A stretch of 64,000 nucleotides of DNA from Alphaproteobacteria bacterium (lineage in GTDB: Bacteria; Pseudomonadota; Alphaproteobacteria; MPNO01; UBA830): the NCBI GenBank assembly GCA_965243135.1, contig OZ251539.1:992001-1056000 (forward strand), read 5' to 3'. The notes under the pieces were generated by a model. That model was given only the letters and a program-made list of their open reading frames with translations, was not told the origin of the DNA and ran no database searches. The position numbers and the translations under genes are program-made. Shown here piece by piece: positions 30,380 through 45,605 of this stretch; the stretch's first letter is position 1; every line of letters starts with the position of its first letter.

Positions 30380-31058
30380 TCTCGATTCGAAGACGCCCTA
30401 TGCCCTCGATCCGTCCTTCGAGAAGGTCTCCGCGCGAGACGGGCGCGGGGCCTTTCGGCGTTCCCGCATAAACGATGTCGCCGGGCTCCAGGCGGCTGTA
30501 GGCCGACAGCCGCGCGACGATCTCCGCCGGCCCCCAAATCATTTGCGAGATGTCGCCGCGCTGGCGCCGCCGGCCGTTCACCGTCATGGCGATTTCGCCT
30601 CGCGCGGGATGGCCGATTTCCGAGGCCGGGCGGATGGCGCTCACCGGCGAGGCGCCGTCGAAGCTCTTGCACAGGTCCCAGGAATGGCGGTTGGCGATGC
30701 ATTCGCGCATGACGTCGCGGCGAATGAGGTCGAAGCCCACGGCGTATCCGAAGACGTGGTCGGGCGCCCGGTTCGCGGGGACGTTCGCGCCGCCCTTGCC
30801 GATCGCGATCACCAATTCGATTTCGGGGTCGAGCTCCGAGGTCGCGGGCGGGTAGGGCACGTTCGAATCGCCCGGAACGATCGAATCCGCCGGCTTCAGG
30901 GATATTCCGGGCGTCGCGTCGCCCGCGTCGAGTCCCGTCTCGGCCGCATGGTCGGCGTAGTTGCGTCCGATCGCGTAGATCCTGCGCACCGGGAACGAGG
31001 CGTCGGAGCCGGCGACGGGAACGGCCGGGCGCGGCCACTCGGGAACTGCCCAGGTCAT
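30372..31058 (-). CDS. fumarylacetoacetate hydrolase family protein
   Basis: IYAIGRNYADHAAE, EIELVIAIG, KSFD, LEPGDIVYAGTP motifs. Confidence 0.9.
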   Translation of the reverse strand: MTWAVPEWPRPAVPVAGSDASFPVRRIYAIGRNYADHAAETGLDAGDATPGISLKPADSIVPGDSNVPYPPATSELDPEIELVIAIGKGGANVPANRAPDHVFGYAVGFDLIRRDVMRECIANRHSWDLCKSFDGASPVSAIRPASEIGHPARGEIAMTVNGRRRQRGDISQMIWGPAEIVARLSAYSRLEPGDIVYAGTPKGPAPVSRGDLLEGRIEGIGRLRIEIV

Positions 31059-33016
31059 GAACGGCTTTTTCCGAGGGCGCTCTTGACGATCTTGCGGGTG
31101 GGCGTCATCGGCATCCGGTCGACGAATTCCAGCGCCTCCGGCCACTTCATTTTCGCCACTTCGTGTTTCCGCAGCCATTCGCGGACGTCGTCGAGCGTCA
31201 GCGCCGCGCCGGGCGCGAGCTGGACGTAGGCGCATGCGCGTTCGCCGAGCACGGGGTCGGGAACCGGCGCGACGGCGGACATCGCCACCGCCGGATGGCG
31301 ATCGATGAGCGTCTCGATGTCCGTCGGATTTATCTTGACGCCGCCGCGATTGATCAGATCCTTCAACCGTCCGGTGATGCGCACGTCGTCGGGCGCGCGT
31401 CGGACCGCGAGATCGCCGGTGCGGAACCATCCCTCGCCGGCGAAAGCGGCGCGGTTCGCCTCTTCGTTGCCGACATAGCCCGCGATCACCGAACAACCGC
31501 GGATCTCCAGTTCGCCTTCTTCGCCGTCGCCGGCCGGGCCGCCGTCCGTCCGCATTATCCGGATTTCGAAGCCGGGCGTCGGACTCCCGAGACTCTCCCG
31601 GCGCAGGGCCGCGGAGGCTTCGAACGGGGTATGAAGGCCCATGAAGCACTCGCTCATGCCCCACATCTGGCCTACCGCGCCGTTCGGCATCGCGTCGTCG
31701 AGCGCGCGCGCCACTTCCGGCGGACAGGCGGATCCCGAAATCGTCGCGAGCCGCAGCGACGACAGGTCGCGCGACGCAAGCAAGCCGGCGCAGGCGGCGA
31801 CATGAGCGGGCGCCGCGAACAACACCGACGGCTTGCCGCCTTCGATCGCCTCCATCAGCGCCGCCGGCTCGAAAGCCGGCATCAGCAGGGAAGCCGCTCC
31901 CGCCATCAGGCTGAAGTTGAGAACGCAGAGGCCGAAAGCGTGGGTGAACGGCGGCAGGCCCAGCACGACGTCGTCTTGCGCGAGGCGGTAGATCGGGGCT
32001 GCAATGCGGTTGTTGGACAGCATCGTATGGTAATTGTGGACGACCGCCCGCGGCGCGGCCGAGGTGCCGGAGGTGAAGCACAGGATCGCGGGATCGGCCG
32101 CGACCGGCGGGTCGGCGACCGCCGATGCGGATCCGCCGTCGATCAGCGCCTGCAAGGAGACGGCGCCCGGCGGCGGCGCGCCGGTCGCGACGACGACGTG
32201 TTCGAGCGTTTCCACGCGCTCGCGAAGCGACGTCATCGTCGCGGGCGCGTCATAGGATTCCGTGGCGCCGCCGCACAGAACCGCGCGCGCGTTCGCGTGG
32301 CGCAGGAGCGGTTCCATTTCTCCCGCCCGGTACGGCATGTGCATGGTCGAAACCACGGCGCCGATCATCGTGGCGGCGAAATAGAAAAGCGCGAATTCCG
32401 GCGTGTTCGGAAGCTGGACCGCGACGACGTCGCCCTTTCGTATGCCGAGGTCGAGAAGCGCGTTCGCAAGACGGCGGGAGCGGTCGATGACGTCCGACCA
32501 GGAGAGGCTTCGGTCCGCGTGACGGAGCGCTTCGGCGTCGGGCGTCTCCTCCGCGCGCGCCTCCAGCCAGGAACTGACGGTGTCGGCCGTCCAGCTTCCG
32601 TCGCGCAGGTAACGCGCCGACAGCTTCGGATCGAAAGACAGCGCGTTCCGCAGCGCCATCGCTTCGTCGCTGAAGGCGAAGCGTTCCTCGTGCGGGACGA
32701 AGCGCTCGGCGCGGAAACGGCGTCCGCCGCCGAGTTCGTACAAGCGGTGATAATGATGCCGCCGGTACCGGCGGTGTTCGGTCATGACGCGGATGAAGGT
32801 GACCTGATCGCGCGTCAGGCCGAGCTTGCGGGCGATTTCCGGATCCGACAGTCCGGTTCCTTCGCGCTGCCGCTCGATCTCGTCCCAGTCCAGTTCCCGA
32901 ACCGGATCGCCGCGCCGAACCTGGTAGTTGTGGCTGAGTTCGAAGACGATGTCGCCCCACGCGCGGAGCATCGCTTCCGTCACGCCGGTCTGACGCCGGT
33001 CGAGGCCTCTGGTCAT
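31055..33016 (-). CDS. acyl/aryl-CoA ligase (AMP-binding) with an extra N-terminal HTH-like domain
   Basis: FTSGTSAAPR, WGMSE, GWFRTGDL, GRLKDLINRGG, PMTPTRKIVK; about 120-aa N-terminal extension containing GLSDPEIARKLGLTRDQV. Confidence 0.88.
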   Translation of the reverse strand: MTRGLDRRQTGVTEAMLRAWGDIVFELSHNYQVRRGDPVRELDWDEIERQREGTGLSDPEIARKLGLTRDQVTFIRVMTEHRRYRRHHYHRLYELGGGRRFRAERFVPHEERFAFSDEAMALRNALSFDPKLSARYLRDGSWTADTVSSWLEARAEETPDAEALRHADRSLSWSDVIDRSRRLANALLDLGIRKGDVVAVQLPNTPEFALFYFAATMIGAVVSTMHMPYRAGEMEPLLRHANARAVLCGGATESYDAPATMTSLRERVETLEHVVVATGAPPPGAVSLQALIDGGSASAVADPPVAADPAILCFTSGTSAAPRAVVHNYHTMLSNNRIAAPIYRLAQDDVVLGLPPFTHAFGLCVLNFSLMAGAASLLMPAFEPAALMEAIEGGKPSVLFAAPAHVAACAGLLASRDLSSLRLATISGSACPPEVARALDDAMPNGAVGQMWGMSECFMGLHTPFEASAALRRESLGSPTPGFEIRIMRTDGGPAGDGEEGELEIRGCSVIAGYVGNEEANRAAFAGEGWFRTGDLAVRRAPDDVRITGRLKDLINRGGVKINPTDIETLIDRHPAVAMSAVAPVPDPVLGERACAYVQLAPGAALTLDDVREWLRKHEVAKMKWPEALEFVDRMPMTPTRKIVKSALGKSRS

Positions 33017-33906
33017 TCCTGGGTTCGCGCCTCGCGCCGCCGTATGGGATCGGCCAGCGGCGCCCTGGTCGCGATCGGGCAGACGCGCATGCATTCGAAG
33101 CACTGGGCCAGCAGCCCGCCGGAGCCGACCGACATCTTGTACCAGAGGATCTTGTTGTCGGGGCCGTACATCAGGTCTTCCCGTTCCGCTTCGTCGTCGG
33201 CGCGGAGCATCTCGGAAAAGACGTCCGGCACGGCCTCGTATTGCTGGGTCATGTCGGCGCAGGCGGCCATGTCGTATCGCATTTCGCGTTGCCGGCCCTC
33301 TTCGTCGATGTCGCCGGACAGGCACTGGACCGGGCAGAACTTCATGCACGGGGTCTGGCCGACCTTGCGGAACAGCTCCACGCAGGAAGGCGCGGGGCAG
33401 GGATTCTCCTCCATCGGCCGGTCCGGCGGAAGCTCGAGTTCCGTGAAGACCGAGGCGAAGTACATGTAGCCGAACTCCGGATGCAGGAGGATGTCGCCGG
33501 CCAGCGACCGGGCGCCGATGCCGGCGACCTCGGCGTGCAGCTTGAGGCTCTGGAACGGCGTGCGGGGACCGGCCTCCGGGTCCATGTCGGGCGGACAGTA
33601 GATGGCGCGCTTTCCGTAGGCGTTCTCGATGAAGAACGCGCAGCCATAGGCCACCGTGTAGGCGCGGGTTTCCGTCGACCCGAAATACCCCAGCGCCTTC
33701 GCCGGAACGCTCCACGCGCCCTGGGTCTGCCCGCCGACGCCGAGCGCGATGATCGACCGCGCTCGCGGCCACAGGTCGCTGGGCCGGTGGCCTTCCGGCG
33801 CAATGCGTTCGACGACGTCGATATCCGCGACTCCAGCGGCCAGCGCTCCCTTTCGCAGGCAATAGGCGAGAATTTCTTCCTTAGCCCGTTCCGACACCAC
33901 CGTCAT
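33013..33906 (-). CDS. QueG/reductive-dehalogenase-like Fe-S (probably cobalamin-binding) oxidoreductase
   Basis: AEVAGIG..SLAGDILLHPEFG, VFTELELPPDRP, Cys clusters C-x4-C-x11-C-x3-CP and CFECMRVCP. Confidence 0.78.
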   Translation of the reverse strand: MTVVSERAKEEILAYCLRKGALAAGVADIDVVERIAPEGHRPSDLWPRARSIIALGVGGQTQGAWSVPAKALGYFGSTETRAYTVAYGCAFFIENAYGKRAIYCPPDMDPEAGPRTPFQSLKLHAEVAGIGARSLAGDILLHPEFGYMYFASVFTELELPPDRPMEENPCPAPSCVELFRKVGQTPCMKFCPVQCLSGDIDEEGRQREMRYDMAACADMTQQYEAVPDVFSEMLRADDEAEREDLMYGPDNKILWYKMSVGSGGLLAQCFECMRVCPIATRAPLADPIRRREARTQE

Positions 33907-35037: not shown

Positions 35038-35849
35038 AAGGTACCCCTGCGAATTCGGTAGGACGAACGTATGCGAAACGTTCGCGCCGTGCAACATTCC
35101 TGTCGGCTGCGGTCCGGCCGCCGGCGCGAATTTCCGCGCCGGCCCCGCGCGAGAATCCCGCAGCCCGACAAACCGCTCCGTGGGCTCGGCTGAACTCGCC
35201 TTCGCGCCAAGCGCTTCGCCGCGCTCGACGCCAGCGCATGTTCGGCCAGAGCCGCCCGCGTCGCAGGACACCACGTTCAGGCAACGACCGCAGCGGCAAG
35301 AAGTCCGCTCCGGCGGTTCGCTACTTTCGAGCCGGCGGGCAGGACCCTCGAACGGGCTCGGCGCGGCCCTGCCCAAGTGACCCTCCCTCGAGCTCCCGTC
35401 ACGCTCCGGCCAGAACCTCGCTTTCGCCGCCGCGCCGACAATGTCGGAACGTGCGCGGCGTTTCTCGCCGTCCGGCGCAAAGGTTGCGAGAACGACAGGT
35501 TTCACCGCGCTCGCTCCGTTGCGCCCGTCGACCGTCAGTCGCCCTGCGAACTCCGCCCTGCCGCACGGCCGTCCCCAAAGCCCGCGCCTTTCGGCGCACG
35601 AGTTCGTCCCTTCAAATATGCCTGTTTTTCAAGATGTTACGAACAACGCGAGATTTTCGCGATAGACCGCGGCGATCGTTCGCCCGCCCTTTTCTCCCGC
35701 TGCGGCCGGGCCGTCCGGATCGAGCCGAGGGGCGCCGAGCGGAGGGCAGCAGACAAAGGTTGCGGCAGCGCAAACGCCTCTCTTGAAACTCAAGTTGCAA
35801 CTGTATACGGTCTACGGACTGTCGTTATGGGGTTTTGTTTCGCAGTCTT

Positions 35850-35879
35850 TTGCGTAGTTTTAACTTCGTTACGGATAAT
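35850..35879 (+). promoter_or_regulatory. putative sigma70 promoter of the autotransporter
   Basis: TTGCGT-N18-GATAAT in an AT-rich patch about 60 bp upstream of ATG 35938 and its AAGAGG RBS. Confidence 0.35.
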
Positions 35880-35937
35880 GCGAATCGGGACCTCCATCCA
35901 TTGGGGTGAGTTTTCTGGACCAAACCAAGAGGTTGTC

Positions 35938-38900
35938 ATGATGAGACTTTGTCGCACACAGTTGATCGGTAGTTCTCCCCCCCCCCCCCCCATAATCTGA
36001 AGCGAGGCTTCATCGCGCTGGGCGGGGCCGCGGCTTTTCTGCTGGCTTTTCCGGCCCCGTCCTTTGCGCAGGACTGCGGCAGCGCCGTTCGAGGCAGCTA
36101 CAATAGCGAAACCGGAGTTTTCTCCGCCGGAACGTCCGCTACGGACGTCGACTACAGGGTGCCTTGCACGGAGGACGACGGAGACTCCGTGATCACGCTG
36201 CCGACGGGTCTTTCGCTGCCGAACGCCGTTTCCGACTCGTACGTGGTGATCGAGGTCGCCGGGTCGGGAAGCGTTCGCAATTTTCAGCCCGGCGCCTGGA
36301 AATACGTCGTGAAGACTCCCGACGACTTCCGGACGGAAAACACGAACGACGCCCTCGGGCACGGCCTGTACTTCCGTAGCGGGAGCGGCGACGTGCGCGT
36401 CGAGCTGCGCGGCGCGGCGACCACCCGCGGAGCGGGCGCGACCGGCATGCGGGTGCGGGTCGACGGCAGCGGCAAGGCGACAGCGGTCAACATGGGAACG
36501 ATCGCCACCCATGGCGACACGCACACTTCCAGCGCGGTCGGCACGTTCATCCTGCCGGCCTACGGCGTCTTCGCGCAAGCGGCGCAGGGCGACGCCGAAG
36601 CGGTGAACCGCGGCGAGATCTCGACGGGCGGCGACGGAGCGAGAGGCATCTTCGCAACGGCCCGCGGGTCGGCGGTGGCGACCAATCACGGGAGGATCAC
36701 GGTTTCCGGTTCTCCGCATGTCTCCGGCTCGGAATACCGGTCTCCGCACGGCATTTTCGCTTGGGGCGGGACGGCGGAGGCCGCCAATTTCGGGACGGTC
36801 GAAACGCGGGGCGACCGGGGACGCGGCGTCTACGCGCGCGGGAGCGTCGCGACGGCGACCAATCGCGGCACGATCGTCACCCGCGGCAATCGCGCGGGCG
36901 TGGAAGGAAATTTCCTCTCGGCAATGGGAGTGGCCGCCCAATCGGGCGGCGACGCGACGGCCGTGAATGCCGAGGGCGCCGCGGTGGACACCTACGGCAC
37001 GAATGCCGACGCCCTGTTCGTCCGGTCGGGTACCGGAGACGCGAACGCCGTGAACGCGGGCGCGCTGCGCACGCACAATACGGTATCGGATCCCGCCAAC
37101 AGGCTCGCGCTCGCCGCCGAAGGCATCTACGCGCGTTCGGACAGCGGCAACGTCACGGTCGTGAACGAGGCGACGGGGTCCGTGCGGACGGCGGGCCCGC
37201 GGACATGGGGCATCCACGCGAGAACGTCCGGCGACGGCGCGGACGCTTCCGCAACGGTGACGGTGACGAACCGGGGCAGCGTGGAGACCCGGGGATGGAA
37301 CTCGGACGGCGTCGTGGCGGCAGCGTATCACGGAGGCAGCGAAGCCAACCCCAACGCCGTCAGGACGATCAACGCCGGAGCCGTCAGGACGCAGGGCGAC
37401 ATGGCCAGCGGCATTATCGCCGCCGTGGACGTCCGCGACCGCGGAACTTCTTTCGGCTCCGCGCGGGCGGAGAACGCCGGCACGATCTCGACCTCCGGCG
37501 GGCCCGGCGACGGAACGAACCCGACGGAAACCGCGTCCGGGGTGGTCGCCGCCTTTTTCAGCACGTCGGACGACGCGATCTCCGACGCCGGAGACGCGAC
37601 CGCGGTCAACAGCGGCACGGTGACCGTCGCCGGCGCGGGCGCGGCCGGACTCGTCGCCCGGACCTACGGGACCGGCGCGGCGACGGTGGAAAATTCCGAG
37701 GGCGGCACGGTGGACACTCGCGGCAAGAATGCCGACGCCATGTACGCCCGGTCGGACGCCGGAGCCGTGAACGCCGTGAACGCGGGCGCGCTTCGCACCC
37801 ACAACACGGTATCGGATCCCGCCAACAGGCTCGCGGACGCTTCCGAAGGCATCTACGCGCGTTCCGAACGCGGCAGCGTCACGGTCGTGAACGAGGCGAC
37901 GGGATCCGTGCGGACGGCGGGCCCGAGAACATGGGGCATCCATGCGAGAACGAACGGCGACGGCGCGGACGCTTCCGCAACGGTGACGGTCACGAACCGG
38001 GGCAGCGTGGAGACCCAAGGGTCGAACGCGGACGGCGTCGTGGCGGCAGCGTATCACGGCGGCAGCGAAGCCAACCCCAACGCCGTCACGACGACCAGTG
38101 CCGGACTCGTCAGGACGCAGGGCGACATGGCCAGCGGCATCATCGCCGCGGTGGACGTCCGCGACCGCGGAACCTCCTTCGGCTCCGCGCGGGCGGAGAA
38201 CGCCGGCACGATCTCGACGTCCGGCGGACCCGGCGACGGAACGGATCCGACGCAGACCGCGTCCGGAGTGGTCGCCGCCTTTTTCAGCACGTCGGACGAC
38301 GCGATCTCCGACGCCGGAGACGCGACCGCGGTCAACAGCGGCACGGTGACCGTCGCCGGCGCGGGCGCGGCCGGACTCGTCGCCCGGACCTACGGGTCCG
38401 GCGCGGCGACGGTGGAAATGAACGGCGGCGCCGTCGTCGCCTCTTCCGCGGACGACCCCGCGACGACGGCCGACGAGGGCGGCATCGGCATATGGGCCGC
38501 CACGGGCGCGTCCGGCAGGGCTTCGGTGACGGTCGGAAACGCGGCTGTCGTCCGGGCGCCGGTTGCGGCGCGGCTCGAAGGCGGCTCCACGAGGCTCGAC
38601 CTTTCTTCCGGCTGGCTCGTCGGCGACGTGCGCTTCGGGAGCGGCGACAACACCCTGAACGTCAGGCAATCAGGCGTCATCGTCGGCGACGTGGCGTTCG
38701 GGGACGGAGAGGACGCGTTGATACTCGACATCTCCTCGGCTGAGGGGATCGGCAGCGTTGCAGGATCGGTCACCGGACTTGAGAACATGATCAAGCGTGG
38801 TTCCGGCGTCGCGCGCGTGCGCGACGTGACTTTCTCCGGCTCCCGGCTTGCGGTCGAGGACGGCATGTTGTCGGTTCGCGGCCATCTCGACCTGGGCGGC

Positions 38901-40283
38901 GACGGCGCCGTCACGATCGAAAACGCCGGCAGGCTGCAGGTGGAGGTCGGCGACCTTGCCGGCAATCCCCAAGACCACGGACGGATCACGGCTGGAAACG
39001 GGGTCCACTTCGAGGAGGGCGCCGAACGGACTGTCCGGGTGGCGCATGCTCCGGATCGCTCCGCCGCGCAGAGGACCGCTTCCGAACAAGTCCTCCAGAC
39101 CGCCGGGATCGCAATCCTCGTCGACGGAACCCCTGCCGTCGATGGACGGAATGAACAGTCGATTGGGGATCTGACCTTGACGACAGAAACGCCCGAAGGG
39201 ACGGTGAACACGGTCGGCAACGTCTCTGTAGACGGTGTAGCCCAGATCAACCCGGGCGCGGAGTTGCCGACCGCCCGGAAGGAGGCCTCTCCACCCGGTG
39301 AACAGAAACCGGAAGCGGACGCGCCTGAGGCTGCCGTGCCCGCCGTGAAGCGCAAAGACCGCAGGGATCGCCGTTTCCTGATCGGGGGAGGAGGGCTGTT
39401 CGCCCTGCTGATGTTCGCTTTCGACCCGTTCCACATGGTGGAGGCGGGCGGTTCGAGCGCCGCGGTCCAGCCGGCGGACGGCCGCGAGGGCGTCGAGGCG
39501 CGCGCGTTCACCGCGGACGCACGGGTGGCGGGGGGAACGATGCGCGGCGTGACGCTGGGCGTCGCTTCGCGGCTCGGCGGCGGTCTCCATCTCGGAGTGT
39601 CGGCGACGCCCGCCCTTGCGGCGACGGCCGATTCCGGGGAGGCGCTGGAAGGGGGCCGGTTCGGGCTTCAGGGCCGCTGGCGGTCGGGCATCCTGGATAT
39701 GGGGGCCAGCCTGTCTCACGGAACCTACGACGCCCGGTCGAAGTCCGCCAACCTCGAAGGGCTGGACAACCCGGAAGGCGTGTACGGACTGCGCCACGGC
39801 CATGCGCAGATGCGCCTGGGCGCCCGCGTCGCCGCCGCCGGAATCGACGTCGCCCCCTCGCTGTCGCTGTTCGGCGGCCGCCTGGAGCAGACGGCGCACA
39901 CGGCGCGGTCCGCGGCTCTGCGCGCCGAAGTGCCGGCGCTGACCCGGCGCTACGGCGGCTGGAAGGCGCGGCTCGACCTCGGGCCGCAGGACTGGCTGCA
40001 GGCCGGCCCTGTCCGGTGGCGCCCGCGGCTGGGCCTCGCCGCGGCGCGGATCTCCACCGACGCTCCGGACGGGCTCCGGGTGCGCCAGTCCGACGCCGCC
40101 GGCGCGTTGAGCTTCACGACGCCGGCGCAGGCGGAAGCGCTGCCGCGGAGGATGCACGCGCTCGCCCTGTCGGCGTTCGCCCGCGGCGAAACCTGGAAAC
40201 TGGATGGCGGCTACGTGGCGGCGATGGTGGCGGACGGCGAGCCGGTCCATGCAGTTGCGGCGCGGCTGCGCATCGACTTCTGA
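35938..40283 (+). CDS. autotransporter-type surface protein/adhesin, frameshifted at a poly-C tract in the signal peptide
   Basis: RBS and ATG at 35938; after the C15 tract an alternative frame encodes HNLKRGFIALGGAAAFLLAFPAPSFA-QD and runs unbroken into ORF 36159..40283; Gly/Ala/Thr-rich beta-helix-like repeats (NxGxIxTxG), IKRGSGV motif, C-terminal beta-strands ending RLRIDF. Confidence 0.85.
35977..35991 (+). repeat. C15 homopolymer (candidate slipped-strand switch)
   Basis: 15 consecutive C residues following codon 13 of the autotransporter leader. Confidence 0.9.
36964..38418 (+). repeat. 726-bp (242-aa) tandem duplication in the autotransporter passenger
   Basis: AACGCCGTGAACGCGGGCGCG at 37044 and 37770; shadow ORFs 37328..37618 and 38054..38344 are offset by exactly 726 bp. 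Confidence 0.92.
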
Positions 40284-40325: not shown

Positions 40326-41283
40326 CGCGCCGAAAAAGCTGAAGGCGGTCGCCCCAAGCCTCCCGGATTCGCCCTCCTGCTCCGGCATGACGATGTCTCA
40401 AGGCGTACGGAATCTTGGGAACCGGAACGATAATATTGCCGCGAACCATGGCCTGGACGATTTGCGCCCCTGCAACGGGTCACGCGTTCTGCGGAGCGAC
40501 GCCTCGGTTTTCGCGTCGCGGATCGACCTGCAGGTTGCTGACGGCGCGAACGGCCCGGCTGGCTGCCGGGTTTTGCGCAAGGTAGGCGCGATCCGGGAGC
40601 CTTTCGTCGGAGGCGGCGCGGACGCAACGCCTTGGGACGGCGGTCGCGCAGCGGCTTCGCGGAAGCCGGTCGTTGCGCCGACGGCATCAAATTTTCCCGT
40701 TCTTCCTCGGTCGTTGCGCTCGTACCACGCTCGTAGCATCATGGCGGACGGGCGAACGGGAGAAAACCGGGGAATGGCTTGGGAGAACGGCGGGACTTGA
40801 CGCGGGCAGGAATTTCGTGCGAAATGCCAAGGTCATTTCAAGTTTAAAGAGAAACATGCCGAAATTGGTAGTGGAATACCTGTTTGCGTCGAGACGTTGC
40901 GAAGCGGTCAGATGGTACGGATGGTAAGGTCATTATGGGGAGTTCACGGTGTCTAGGGGTTCACCGGCTGCGAAGTTTGCCAAGCAGATCCGAAAGGCCG
41001 TGGCCATCCTCTGCCCAATGATGATCGGTCGTGACTGGCTGGCAGCGCTGATCGTACAATCCCAGAAACCCACCAGCTGAAGGTGGCGCCCGTGGCACGA
41101 TTTTGGAAGATGTTCTCCGACCCGAACTGGAAGAAGAGCTGATGTGGAGTGCAGAAGCGAGGGCATCGACGCGAAGCGTGACGTCCGCGTTTCGCGGTTC
41201 GGAACGGGATAACGCGATGCCGCCAGCCAAAAAGCACCAGAAATGAATACTTTCCTTCCGATTTGATTATGGGATGATGATTT

Positions 41284-42765
41284 ATGGGCCAGAATTTTCC
41301 CCCTGATTTATCTTCGCAATTTAATGATCCTTTAATCACGTTTTCCGACGCCAAATCATTGGAACAAAAGACTCTTGCGATTAAAGGGTTAATGAAAGGA
41401 GGAGCGATTCATGCTGCGCATAAGGATTTGCGTTTTTCGAAAGGATTGAACGAAACAATCAATCGTTTAAATTCCACAAAAGACGCTAAGGAAATACTAT
41501 TGTCTCTTGCTATATTGTCTCGTGTTGCGAATCGAATCAAACCCTATAAGGAGGGGTTAAAACCGCAAATCAATGCTATTTTGCGAAATGCACCGCCACC
41601 TTTATCGATCCTAGATGAAGCGGAGGACAGAGCATATGTCGCACAATCTTTAAGATATTGGGCAACAGGCGATTGGATAGTTTCTTATGTAGCGCTCTGT
41701 ATAGTAAATGAGGAGACAGGTGAAAAAGTAAGATCCGAACTTATTCGTACTTTATTTTGCGAATCTCAGGATCTTACGATTGCATTTAAGGAAATTCAAC
41801 GACAGCTCGTATCTTGGGAACCGAAAACTGAATCACCGGGGGACAGCGTTGCGAGACGACTAAAGCGGATTTTCAGTAGTATGCGCCGGGAAATATTAAG
41901 TATTGAAAAGCCTTCTGGTAGTGAAATTGGTACGGCTATTAACAGCATAATTGTTGATTCTTTTCGCAAAACCGATCCTCCTAGGGATCGAAAGGTTGCG
42001 ATTGATTTTGTGGCAGAAACAGCTTTTCTCATTCATGATGTTATTCGAACTAATTTTTCCATAGCATCAATTAGCTCCACATATTTGCCATTAACGACAC
42101 TATCTCGTTGGTTTGCGCCGATCTCGTGGCCTCAAGCTACCCGCTCAGCTCTTCAGAAGTTATCGCAAGATATACAAGAAGCTATTTTGATGAAAGCTAG
42201 GCAAGGTCTTCCGGACGACGAATTGCTAAAATTTTTAACTTTGATTGAAGGATCACGGACGGTGGCTCTGCGGCTCACCTCTCAAATTGCTGATCGCACA
42301 CCCAGTCTCAATAAAGAAATGACGCAGTGGTTACGTCGCGGAAGAGTTACAAAGAATGTTGATAGCACAGAAATAGTGGCGGAAAACAGTTTCCTTGCAT
42401 CCGACACTGCTTTAGCGTTCTTATTGTTGGATAGTTTTCGGTTGGTTGAATTACTTGAGGCCGATAGCCAAGATATACTCACCGAAATGCGTATTTTCAA
42501 TCCTGAGCTAGAAGAGATGGTCAAAAAGATACTTGAGCTTTCTGGTGCGCTTACGAAAGGGGTCGAAGCATTAGCGAAAAGAAGATCCTTATTTTGTCGA
42601 GGAGAAATTGGCAATATAGTAGATTATTCGTCGTTGGAGCAAGAGCCTGTCTCTGGTTCCGTTGTGGGCGCTACCAAGGTGCGTGTTATACGACCGCTTG
42701 TCGAACGTATCCGGAGCGATCAAGTTCCCGAAATTGTGGTCAAAGCAATAGTCAATCGTGCTTGA
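41284..42765 (+). CDS. hypothetical helical protein with a GrpE-like C-terminal region
   Basis: 493-aa ORF in AT-rich DNA; C-terminus ...GVEALAKRRSL..GEIGNIVDYSSLEQEPV...VRVIRPLV...IVVKAIV resembles the GrpE helix plus beta domain. Confidence 0.75.
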   Translation: MGQNFPPDLSSQFNDPLITFSDAKSLEQKTLAIKGLMKGGAIHAAHKDLRFSKGLNETINRLNSTKDAKEILLSLAILSRVANRIKPYKEGLKPQINAILRNAPPPLSILDEAEDRAYVAQSLRYWATGDWIVSYVALCIVNEETGEKVRSELIRTLFCESQDLTIAFKEIQRQLVSWEPKTESPGDSVARRLKRIFSSMRREILSIEKPSGSEIGTAINSIIVDSFRKTDPPRDRKVAIDFVAETAFLIHDVIRTNFSIASISSTYLPLTTLSRWFAPISWPQATRSALQKLSQDIQEAILMKARQGLPDDELLKFLTLIEGSRTVALRLTSQIADRTPSLNKEMTQWLRRGRVTKNVDSTEIVAENSFLASDTALAFLLLDSFRLVELLEADSQDILTEMRIFNPELEEMVKKILELSGALTKGVEALAKRRSLFCRGEIGNIVDYSSLEQEPVSGSVVGATKVRVIRPLVERIRSDQVPEIVVKAIVNRA

Positions 42766-42816
42766 CGAGTTGGAATCCCCCTTGAATCAGCAAATTAGCT
42801 TGCAAAGGAAGAGAGC

Positions 42817-44496
42817 ATGAACACAAACAACGCCAAGATAATTCTTGAAAATCTCTTGGAGCGGATTGAAAATAATCCCCAAACAGGGAGAAAGACTCTT
42901 CCTGGGATAATTTCTGATCGTGAGTATGCAGCGATTGATTTTGCCATCAATGTGCTAAGGAAAACTAGTCCTGATGAGAATTATGAAGAACACCCTATAT
43001 CGACAATAAGCGAGACCTCAACCGGTTCAACGGCCCAGCTGGAGCTACGATGCCTCGATTATATTAAGCCGGAAGACCCCAATGTTATACTCTGTATAGA
43101 TTTTGGAACCGCGATGTCAAAGGCTGTCGTGACCAAGGACGCCGATGACGAGATATTGCCTTTGCCGTTGGGGCGAAAATCTGGCGAGCCTGTTTTAGTT
43201 TTTCCTATGTCTTCCACGTTGTTTATTTCACGCACGGGTCGAATATATTTCGGATATTCGGCGATTAGAGAAAGCTTGGCGGAGGAATCAAAAGGAGGTC
43301 TATCACGCAAAGAAAGCCGATCACGCTTTGACTCTTCGAAACAACGTTTAAGTCAGGGGATGTTGGCTGATCCTTCCAGACGAAATGTTGATGAAACAAT
43401 AAATCCCACCGAGTATACCTTTACTGAGGGTGATTTGATTTTGCTAATCTTATCTTTCTTAACCGATCTTGCCTGCACAGAACTCGAAGAGAAGGGCATA
43501 TCACGATATGTTCGGAGGCGTTTTGCCATGCCATTTTGGAGCGGAGATAGAGCGGAGTGGGCGAAGTCTTATATGACAAAGCTGTTAGCAAAGGCGCAGA
43601 TAGTTGCTGATACATTTTCTGGCCAGTGGGCAAATGGTTTAGAAGCGGAAAGAGTACAACGAATATTGAACGATGTCAATAATTGCGAAAAATTTCCTGA
43701 ATACTTAATTGATAATCCGGTTTTTGAGGCAGCAGCTGCAGCAAGTAGTAGTTTTCCATATGGATCGGGAAAACGGGAATTGTATATGATAATGGATGTT
43801 GGTGCTGGAACGGTTGATTACGGATTATATGCCGTTGTCACTCCTAAGAATGACACGAAGAAGCCGAAAATATTTCAAGCTAAAGGAACCATGTTGGCAT
43901 TAAGAAAAGGGGGAGATACTATAGACGGGATTTTGAGGCTATTTATTTTGGAGAGAGAAAGAATTAACGAGAAGGATGCGGATTTTGACTATATCGACCG
44001 TGATCTGAAATTGAGGATTCGGACTCTGAAAGAAAATCTATTTCAACAAGGAGCAGTTACCTATAATCTTTCTAATGATTCCGTTGGGGAGGTTGTTCTA
44101 GAAGATTTTTTGGCGGACCGAAGAATGACTGAATTGGAACGAGTTTTTCGAGAAAGTTTCGAGAAATCTTTGATGAATGCTGAACCTTCATGGATAACAA
44201 AATTATCTCAATCTAGGCTTACGGTTGTTTTGACGGGTGGTGGTGCGCGATTGCCAATACTGACAGGTTTGAGTACCTCATCCTTTAAAGTTCACGGTGT
44301 AAATCTGCAATGTAAAGGCACAGCAGTTGTACCGGAGTGGTTTACTGAAAAATATAGCGAATGGGAGACCGAATTTCCTCAGTTGGCTGTTGCTATAGGA
44401 GGGGCGGAGGAGGATCCGCCTGATATATGCAGAGAATATGGAGAAATCGGAATATCAGATACAAAAATTGTTGGGCTTAAGCCTGAGTATAAATAG
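42817..44496 (+). CDS. divergent Hsp70/actin-fold ATPase lacking a substrate-binding domain
   Basis: CIDFGTAMSK (phosphate 1), FEAAAAA (connect 1), MDVGAGTVD (phosphate 2), GGDTID, VLTGGGARLP (adenosine); RBS AAGGAAGAG. Confidence 0.88.
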   Translation: MNTNNAKIILENLLERIENNPQTGRKTLPGIISDREYAAIDFAINVLRKTSPDENYEEHPISTISETSTGSTAQLELRCLDYIKPEDPNVILCIDFGTAMSKAVVTKDADDEILPLPLGRKSGEPVLVFPMSSTLFISRTGRIYFGYSAIRESLAEESKGGLSRKESRSRFDSSKQRLSQGMLADPSRRNVDETINPTEYTFTEGDLILLILSFLTDLACTELEEKGISRYVRRRFAMPFWSGDRAEWAKSYMTKLLAKAQIVADTFSGQWANGLEAERVQRILNDVNNCEKFPEYLIDNPVFEAAAAASSSFPYGSGKRELYMIMDVGAGTVDYGLYAVVTPKNDTKKPKIFQAKGTMLALRKGGDTIDGILRLFILERERINEKDADFDYIDRDLKLRIRTLKENLFQQGAVTYNLSNDSVGEVVLEDFLADRRMTELERVFRESFEKSLMNAEPSWITKLSQSRLTVVLTGGGARLPILTGLSTSSFKVHGVNLQCKGTAVVPEWFTEKYSEWETEFPQLAVAIGGAEEDPPDICREYGEIGISDTKIVGLKPEYK

Positions 44497-44612
44497 AGCC
44501 GAGTATCATCTATTTCTCTAATTTTCATTGGGTGGGTATCAAGCAGAAGGACGGTAGGCTACAATGCCCCCTGGGGCGACGGATTTGCGGGTGCGGCTTG
44601 GAGAAGGGGCAA

Positions 44613-45605
44613 ATGCAGAACGACATTCATCTCACCATGGCGACATGGGATTACGACCATATCCGCGACATCGCGTCGGGCGCAGTCAAGCCGAAGGGCA
44701 TCAGGATCACCCACCTGGAGATGGAGGTCGAGGAGATCTTCTACCGCTTCGCAAAATCCTTCGAATGGGACGTTTCGGAGCTTTCCTTCGCGAAGTACTG
44801 CTCGATCCTGTCCCAAGACGCCCCGCCGATCACCGGCATACCCGTCTTCGTCAGCCGCGTCTTCCGCCATTCGGCGTTCTACGTCTGGAGGGGGAGCGGC
44901 GTCGAGAAACCCGAAGATCTGCGCGGCGGCCGGGTCGGGATACCGGAGTGGTCGCAGACGGCGACGGTTTACGCGCGCGGCTGGCTGCATCACCAGGCTG
45001 GCGTGAAGCTTGACGAGGTGGAGTGGGTGCAGGCGGGAGTCGACGCTCCCGGGCGGCTCGAGATGGCGACGCTCAAGCTGCCGGAAGGCGTCAAGTATAC
45101 GCAGGTTCCCGACCGGTCGCTGTCCGAAATGCTTGGCGACGGGACGATCGATTGCATGATATCGGCGCATGCGCCGCAGGCGTTCGAGACGGGAGAGATC
45201 GTGCGTCTGATTCCCGATTATCGAGACGCCGAGGAACGGTATTTCGAAGAGACCGGCATCTTTCCGATCATGCACACGATCGCCATCCGGCGAGATGCGT
45301 ACGAGAATCATCCCTGGATTGCGCGCAACCTGATGACGGCGTTCGAAGAGGCGCGCGACCGCAGCGTTGCGCGAATCACCAGCGTCACTGCGTCGCAGAT
45401 CCCCGTGCCCTGGGGCTACGAGAACGCCGGGCGCATCGGGCGGAAGGTGTTCGGCGACGGCGGGTTGTGGCCCTACGGGATCGAAGCCAACCGGACCACG
45501 ATCGAAGCGTTTCTCCAATACTGCCACGAACAGGGCGTTTGCCATCGCAGACTCGCTCCGGAAGATCTCTACGCTCCGGAAGCTCTGACGGAGTACGTGA
45601 TATGA
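44613..45605 (+). CDS. 4,5-dihydroxyphthalate decarboxylase-like / periplasmic-binding-fold protein
   Basis: YDH, DVSELS, PVFVSRVFRHS, DLRGGRVGIPEWSQTA, GIFPIMH, WPYGIEANR, QG motifs. Confidence 0.85.
   Translation: MQNDIHLTMATWDYDHIRDIASGAVKPKGIRITHLEMEVEEIFYRFAKSFEWDVSELSFAKYCSILSQDAPPITGIPVFVSRVFRHSAFYVWRGSGVEKPEDLRGGRVGIPEWSQTATVYARGWLHHQAGVKLDEVEWVQAGVDAPGRLEMATLKLPEGVKYTQVPDRSLSEMLGDGTIDCMISAHAPQAFETGEIVRLIPDYRDAEERYFEETGIFPIMHTIAIRRDAYENHPWIARNLMTAFEEARDRSVARITSVTASQIPVPWGYENAGRIGRKVFGDGGLWPYGIEANRTTIEAFLQYCHEQGVCHRRLAPEDLYAPEALTEYVI

Follow-up and report, generated by a model that had tools for sequence, protein, structure and literature searches.

In Neisseria meningitidis, the autotransporters NalP and AusI (MspA) carry poly-C tracts in their coding regions, and NalP is phased ON in about half of the strains, as stated in passages of PMC5472700. 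The same passages describe AutA and AutB of Neisseria and Haemophilus, in which AAGC repeats are located just past the start codon. In Neisseria gonorrhoeae, PilC1 and PilC2 contain a poly-G tract inside the signal-peptide coding sequence, where frameshifts make expression phase-variable, according to the part of PMC13017665 dealing with them. Here we describe a poly-C tract of 15 bases (C15) in a stretch of 64,000 nucleotides (nt) from an alphaproteobacterial genome (GenBank assembly GCA_965243135.1, contig OZ251539.1, positions 992,001 to 1,056,000), the whole of which is called the window below. The tract is located between an ATG at position 35938 and the coding sequence of a signal peptide. 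With a probability of about 0.72, we consider that the gene encodes a BigA-like type Va autotransporter, the expression of which would be gated by this hypermutable poly-C tract, translated as a proline (Pro) run in an N-terminal extension of the signal peptide.

The locus resembles NalP and AusI, as far as these are treated in the cited passages, in being an autotransporter gene with a coding-region poly-C tract, and the NalP translocator was among the fold matches of the protein. AutA and AutB differ, as described there, in having a tetranucleotide AAGC repeat and not a homopolymer. Unlike in NalP and AusI, the tract here is located in a leader ahead of the signal peptide, extends over 11–37 C in relatives and occurs in marine bacteria of high guanine plus cytosine (GC) content. 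In Neisseria, NalP and AusI further differ in having serine-protease passengers and shorter tracts. PilC differs from the present gene product in being a type IV pilus tip adhesin, not an autotransporter, and its tract consists of G, not C. In Bordetella, poly-C tracts are found in the promoters of fim genes and poly-C/G tracts in bapC. The likeness to Bordetella is that of high-GC proteobacteria with long C runs varying surface structures, and other loci of the genome studied here seem to be of the promoter or 5′ untranslated region (UTR) type; the fim tracts differ in acting on promoter spacing, not on the reading frame. The slippage mechanism is already known, and the setting is new. To our knowledge, homopolymer phase variation, which is textbook matter for human pathogens, is hardly documented in environmental bacteria and invertebrate symbionts, and a full-text literature search, with most subscription journals outside it, returned nothing relevant on phase variation or contingency loci in sponge symbionts.

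The tract, its leader and the encoded protein

The features of the locus are listed below with their positions in the window, strand and basis. ON denotes the frame that joins the ATG to the signal peptide, and OFF denotes the other two.

35927..35932, plus strand: Shine-Dalgarno (SD)-like AAGAGG, 5 nt ahead of the ATG (read from sequence)
35938..35976, plus strand: start codon ATG 35938 and 13-codon leader MMRLCRTQLIGSS, 5′ of the tract (translation)
35977..35991 (genome C1:1027977-1027991), plus strand: poly-C tract, C15, five Pro codons (sequence, translation)
35993..36000, plus strand: stops of the two OFF frames, TAA 35993-35995 and TGA 35998-36000 (sequence)
35991..36068, plus strand: post-tract part of the signal peptide, with n-region HNLKRG, h-region FIALGGAAAFLLAF and c-region PAPSFA (translation)
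36069..39491, plus strand: passenger region, with repeats rich in Gly/Asn; Pfam PF27417 (BigA_3rd) in homologues (translation, alignment, atlas)
about 39390-39443, plus strand: linker helix directly 5′ of the barrel (AlphaFold2 (AF2) model)
39492..40280, plus strand: C-terminal beta-barrel translocator, last residue F (AF2 model, Foldseek)
40281..40283, plus strand: stop codon of the long frame (open reading frame (ORF) list, translation)

With C15 placed between the ATG and the signal peptide, the length of the tract sets the reading frame. Translation of 35938-36000 from the ATG gave MMRLCRTQLIGSSPPPPPII followed by a stop, i.e. MMRLCRTQLIGSS-PPPPP-II ending at TGA 35998-36000. In the frame opening at the last C (35991), translation gives HNLKRGFIALGGAAAFLLAFPAPSFAQDCGS..., with 1430 codons before the stop at 40281-40283. 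ATG 35938 is joined to this long frame if the tract has 13, 16 or 19 C (1 modulo 3), and the third frame (C14, C17) terminates at TAA 35993-35995. The OFF frames stop about 0–3 codons downstream of the tract; both of them stopped this soon at none of 1179 control positions inside the gene. Ahead of the tract, the remaining two frames are closed by stops at a distance of 1–3 codons. The N-terminus of the long frame is HNLKRGFIALGGAAAFLLAFPAPSFA/QDCGS..., with cleavage predicted, as judged by hand, before QDCGS. Its h-region has a Kyte-Doolittle score of 2.32, a Sec-type peptide is present in the joined ON frame only, and the signal peptide and the next Cys are conserved in the family alignment. 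The ORF list contained only a GTG-started ORF of 1374 amino acids (aa) at 36159-40283, the start of which lies behind the signal peptide. A preliminary description of this DNA had claimed that a ribosome-binding site and ATG 35938 lead to PPPPP-II-stop with C15, that C13 or C16 would continue through a Sec signal peptide into the 1374-aa ORF, and that the ORF track misses this; sequence and translation bore out every detail. No other C/G run of at least 9 bases occurs within the window, and the window shuffle test was weak, as 7 overlapping 9-mer matches were reached in 4 of 100 shuffles.

The following switch is proposed. Slipped-strand mispairing at replication would change the tract by single bases, a step assumed because it is the established behaviour of G/C homopolymers. 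At 13, 16 or 19 C, ribosomes starting at ATG 35938 behind the SD motif would translate the proline run and the signal peptide in one frame, with export of the protein to the outer membrane, while at other lengths they would halt just past the tract, so that only a peptide of about 20 residues would be made and nothing exported. At least five consecutive prolines would be present near the N-terminus of the ON product. Elongation factor P (EF-P), which is needed for translating proline runs, is encoded in this genome. We infer from the comparison with related loci, which is strong evidence, that the locus may switch at a useful rate in this organism; the passenger is presumably an adhesin.

The C15 genotype as sequenced is OFF, as had been stated before, and read data support this. 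For runs X6 and X7, which come from one sample, Logan contigs covered 35500-36014 with no differences and no gaps, and in both the tract was bridged with 15 C. For run X8, from another sample, the upstream contig ended at 35975 and none of the contigs listed spans the tract, which makes this run uninformative on length and heterogeneity. Among the runs containing the locus, no run is on record as RNA.

The gene product was examined by fold and by homology. An AF2 model of the last 311 residues (1120-1430; 27 aligned sequences) had a mean predicted local distance difference test (pLDDT) value of 82.5 and consisted of helices and then a long run of strands. The best Foldseek matches of the model in the Protein Data Bank (PDB) were autotransporter beta-domains, i.e. 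EspP (1.4e-8), AaaA, EstA, BrkA, NalP, Hbp and AIDA-I, with E values from 1.4e-8 to 7e-4, and the NalP translocator structures 1uyo and 1uyn were among the fold matches; the autotransporter identity proposed earlier is thus supported by the translocator fold. The protein terminates in F, and the family shares a conserved ...ARxxxRF end. A sequence profile search of solved structures in the PDB gave no match at E values up to 1. The protein itself did not match PF03797 (Autotransporter beta-domain), so its autotransporter membership rests on fold and homologues: the homologue P0056 passed PF03797 with 37.9 bits, and the atlas neighbours were all autotransporter clusters, including Pertactin/PATR families. 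These families and the Gly/Asn repeats hint that the passenger may be beta-helical. Most homologues carry a precomputed match to PF27417, named BigA_3rd in the atlas. The Pfam copy searched returned no PF27417 match for the protein, nor for the homologues P0003 and P0019, both of which have the precomputed match; therefore the PF27417 model is probably absent from that copy. By fold and homologues, and not by its own Pfam score, the assignment of the protein as a predicted type Va (classical) autotransporter is supported.

Homologous loci and the genome-wide set of tracts

Homologous loci were searched in one genome per species with an 8-sequence alignment as query (a 26-sequence alignment being too diverse), which gave 12 loci in metagenome-assembled genomes (MAGs) labelled Alphaproteobacteria, Gammaproteobacteria and Immundisolibacterales. 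In 8 of the 12, the 5′ end of the gene has a run of C11-C37 on its coding strand, in the order ATG leader of 3–11 codons, tract, signal peptide. For two others (L010 and L018), the 5′ end was off the contig or indistinct. The frames of the tract-bearing loci were as follows.

In frame: L012 (C37), L014 (C24), L017 (C28)
Out of frame: L009 (C11), L011 (C13), L013 (C21), L015 (C16), L020 (C12)

With lengths of 11 to 37 and both ON and OFF states among the relatives, this comparison strongly supports the contingency-locus layout of the preliminary description, which had also pointed to the autotransporter leaders of this genome and its relatives as places to look for similar tracts; tracts were found in the leaders of the 8 relatives' loci and, in this genome, at about half of the autotransporter genes.

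No ATG, GTG or TTG occurs in the ON frame from the tract to the middle of the h-region at any of ten loci (the gene, its paralogue and the eight relatives), so the signal peptide can be made only via the tract. Most of the ten have an SD-like motif ahead of the leader ATG, and both OFF frames stop within 8 codons past the tract in 8/10, compared with 0–2% of in-gene control positions; the exceptions are the paralogue and L017. The absent internal starts and the quick OFF stops argue, at the level of sequence, that the tract is translated and that OFF would be a state in use. At the protein level, the homologue search, which covered lengths of 786–2503, yielded 61 clusters among the 8000 candidates scored. 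Eight of these open with 3–9 Pro ahead of the signal peptide, so the tract was called as translated there; 33 have a signal peptide only, and 20 fall below the hydrophobicity threshold, i.e. their called start lies behind the signal peptide, except that in P0041, which is among these 20, a signal peptide is visible. In another assembly, the L015 gene is represented by the protein P0023, which implies 23 C, versus 16 in L015. Two frames out of three have an ATG 5′ of the tract in L013 and L014 (Gammaproteobacteria MAG; MCGNDS..., MGARGV...), and P0032 was called from the second upstream ATG (MGARGV...); two of the three length classes might be ON in these two loci, with different leaders.

The genome itself contains a paralogue and a third leader. 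Paralogue B at C1:4041262 encodes a 96–97% identical protein and has an in-frame tract, C14, in the corresponding position. CTGATC has taken the place of its leader ATG, the nearest in-frame ATG being 173 nt upstream, and query residues 433-630 are missing by an internal deletion. Its score against PF03797 was 24.4 bits, just below the cut-off of 26. Just downstream of paralogue B, at C1:4045686-4047114, there are two short C-terminal fragments, 85–86% identical to residues 1366-1430, one of which contains TGA. At the third leader (C1:5422365), the 28 bases past the tract are identical to those of the locus. It begins ATG-CCA-TTG-C7 and reads MPLPPHNLKRGFIAL..., in frame via the short C7, with an ORF of only 148 aa; since it reads through from the upstream ATG, the post-tract sequence is meant for reading from a start before the tract.

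Runs of C and G were counted over the whole genome (6.10 Mb, 65% GC, single contig). C runs of 6, 7 and 8 bases numbered 384, 43 and 5, and G runs 414, 37 and 9, respectively; after this geometric fall to length 8 there was a plateau of 62 C/G runs of 9–21 bases, while A/T runs ended at 10. This genome-wide length census is decisive for an excess of tracts beyond chance. Tracts of at least 11 bases are located at or near the 5′ end in 8 of the 18 PF03797 matches of the genome, to which the gene at 35938-40283 is added, and tracts affect about half of its autotransporter genes. Sets of contingency loci usually comprise surface proteins and restriction-modification (R-M) systems. Tracts adjoin the following genes (genome positions).

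230426, 881776, 941684, 5525652, 5570204: autotransporter ORFs adjoining tracts (Pfam)
183204: gene of a giant LapA/Calx-beta protein, adjoining a C20 tract
741106, 2859508: Type ISP methylase/R-M genes (tract positions)
1267195: N6_N4_Mtase (tract position)
1307691: N6_Mtase (tract position)
2228262: Eco57I (tract position)
793994: UPF0020 (tract position)

The six methylase/R-M genes with adjoining tracts are candidate phase-variable methylases (phasevarions). With this gene as one of about 60 such loci, the cells of one clone would differ in their surface proteins and DNA-methylation systems, since each cell would display its own set.

Other tract classes were noticed in the genome. In a second autotransporter family (C1:5525652, 5570204, 881776, 5426), CATAAT is located directly 5′ of the poly-C and an ATG about 25 nt past the tract; these tracts probably act at the promoter or 5′ UTR, outside the coding sequence. 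The motif GAAATTAGGGTTTA, followed by a C tract and GC, is found upstream of genes at C1:230426, 271003, 4921345 and 5147512 and resembles a shared promoter with a poly-C spacer. A repeated element (C1:448899, 5407825, 5425744 and 5759341, also 419006 and 477004, with variants at 631025 and 5530326) has a poly-G tract 5 nt past the ATG of an ORF of 256–313 aa (AKKGMLQAARCGKM...), 12–18 bases long across the copies; the one copy scanned (L041) had no Pfam match, and the element possibly represents a mobile-element gene that has a slippage switch of its own. In related genomes, runs of at least 12 C were found in 15 of the 31 searched, very unevenly (0–448 overlapping matches), and fragmented assemblies likely undercount them.

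Opposing evidence and rival explanations

Several results weigh against the proposed poly-C gating. The protein had no Pfam match, either whole or as its C-terminal 311 aa, even at E values up to 10, and no match in NCBIfam. No length heterogeneity was seen at 35977-35991, both the X6 and the X7 contigs having C15, and such contigs drop rare variants; the two runs are possibly the assembly's own data, hence not independent of it, so that they rule out a slip of the assembler but not a platform bias. Length change was seen directly only at the tract of the paralogue, where it speaks for switching: loose contig ends gave at least 15 C in X6 versus G + 14 C in X7 (of one sample with X6) and X8, a difference that depends on one contig with a depth of 5.6. 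The N-terminal 300 aa gave no orthologue at an E value of 1e-5 in the same-genus genomes G001-G004; a metagenome scan with the N-terminal 500 aa gave one marginal locus (38% over residues 58-118), which was not used. Two of the 12 loci (L016, L019) and the homologues P0003 and P0007 have the signal peptide without the tract, which is therefore not obligatory for the family. Moreover, the MAG consensus of long homopolymers can miss by one base, and some of the ON/OFF calls in relatives may be technical.

If the cells carried an in-frame length such as C16, and C15 were a homopolymer miscall, the gene would simply be ON, with a tract possibly still variable. Long homopolymers are the classic site of indel errors in long-read data, from which the single 6.1-Mb contig was probably assembled, and runs X6 and X7 may belong to that very data set. 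Against this, contigs from two separate runs both span the tract gap-free, with 15 C exactly. The tract is also out of frame in 5 of the 8 related loci, and 20 of the 61 called homologues have no signal peptide; therefore OFF is normal for the family and an error is not needed to account for C15. We regard a miscall as unlikely.

Another explanation, equally unlikely in our judgement, is a leaky or programmed bypass, in which slippage of RNA polymerase, or a −1 slip of the ribosome on the all-C run, restores the frame in some of the products, so that C15 means low expression, not OFF. Long homopolymers are prone to transcriptional slippage, and CCC-C sites to shifts of tRNA-Pro. Every frame of the C run reads Pro, and five consecutive Pro codons would be expected to stall ribosomes; the immediate stops in both OFF frames, on the other hand, suggest intended termination. 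A bypass of this kind would complement switching at the DNA level.

A dying gene, with the frameshift as a fixed inactivating mutation in an accessory gene that is being lost, appears slightly less probable again. Paralogue B has lost its leader ATG and carries the internal deletion 433-630, the third leader opens an ORF of just 148 aa, two C-terminal fragments are located near paralogue B, and the N-terminal 300 aa found no orthologue in the 4 congeners. However, the long frame of the gene is intact over 1430 codons, its sole defect being a one-base phase error in a 15-base homopolymer, and its alignment with homologues extends over the full length. Distant lineages, moreover, have retained the same layout, long tracts included.

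A transcriptional role, with the tract as promoter spacer or 5′ UTR element and translation starting downstream, is very improbable: the C + ATAAT directly past the tract is similar to a −10 box, CATAAT is found before the tract and an ATG about 25 nt after it at C1:5525652, 5570204 and 881776, and the GAAATTAGGGTTTA + C tract + GC class is promoter-like, but a promoter scan of 35500-36300 gave no sigma-70-like site, homologues were called with the proline run translated, and no canonical start lies between tract and signal peptide here and at 9 other loci, the first one being GTG 36159, behind the signal peptide.

Implications, habitat and flanking genes

Poly-C gating of the autotransporter, the reading preferred here, belongs to a clean architecture that is conserved across two proteobacterial classes and accompanied by a genome-wide set of similar tracts. 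A wider proposal is put forward tentatively, as having a little less than an even chance: the poly-C/poly-proline leader would be a conserved module of the BigA-like family in sponge-associated Alpha- and Gammaproteobacteria (up to C37), within a set of about 60 phase-variable loci for surface proteins and DNA methylases, as large as the sets of Neisseria and Campylobacter, in a non-pathogenic marine symbiont. If so, stochastic surface switching would be a general means of persistence in a phagocytic, phage-rich filter-feeding host. If the tracts switch, sponge-associated bacteria would gain surface and epigenetic diversity within a clone, which bears on escaping host feeding and phage killing. 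For annotation, gene callers shorten such genes (to GTG 36159 here, and in 20 of the 61 homologues) and the exported proteins are mislabelled, and long-homopolymer 'frameshifts' in MAGs are thrown out as errors.

The sponge-metagenome runs X1-X5 contain 0.06–0.35 of the sampled words of the locus, which is a habitat hint only, and the title of one related MAG points to a sponge-derived bin.

Upstream of the locus, an AMP-binding enzyme gene is located at 31055-33862 on the minus strand, and the flanking ORFs between 33.9 and 35.9 kb of the window gave no recognisable gene product. Directly past the autotransporter gene the GC content falls from about 0.68 to 0.42–0.48 (window 41000-45000). Two plus-strand ORFs there, 41284-42765 and 42817-44496, had no Pfam match in either and matched the PADLOC candidate defence system PDC-M61, components A (5e-84) and B (7.9e-135), respectively; by these matches, 41284-44496 looks like an acquired two-gene defence island.

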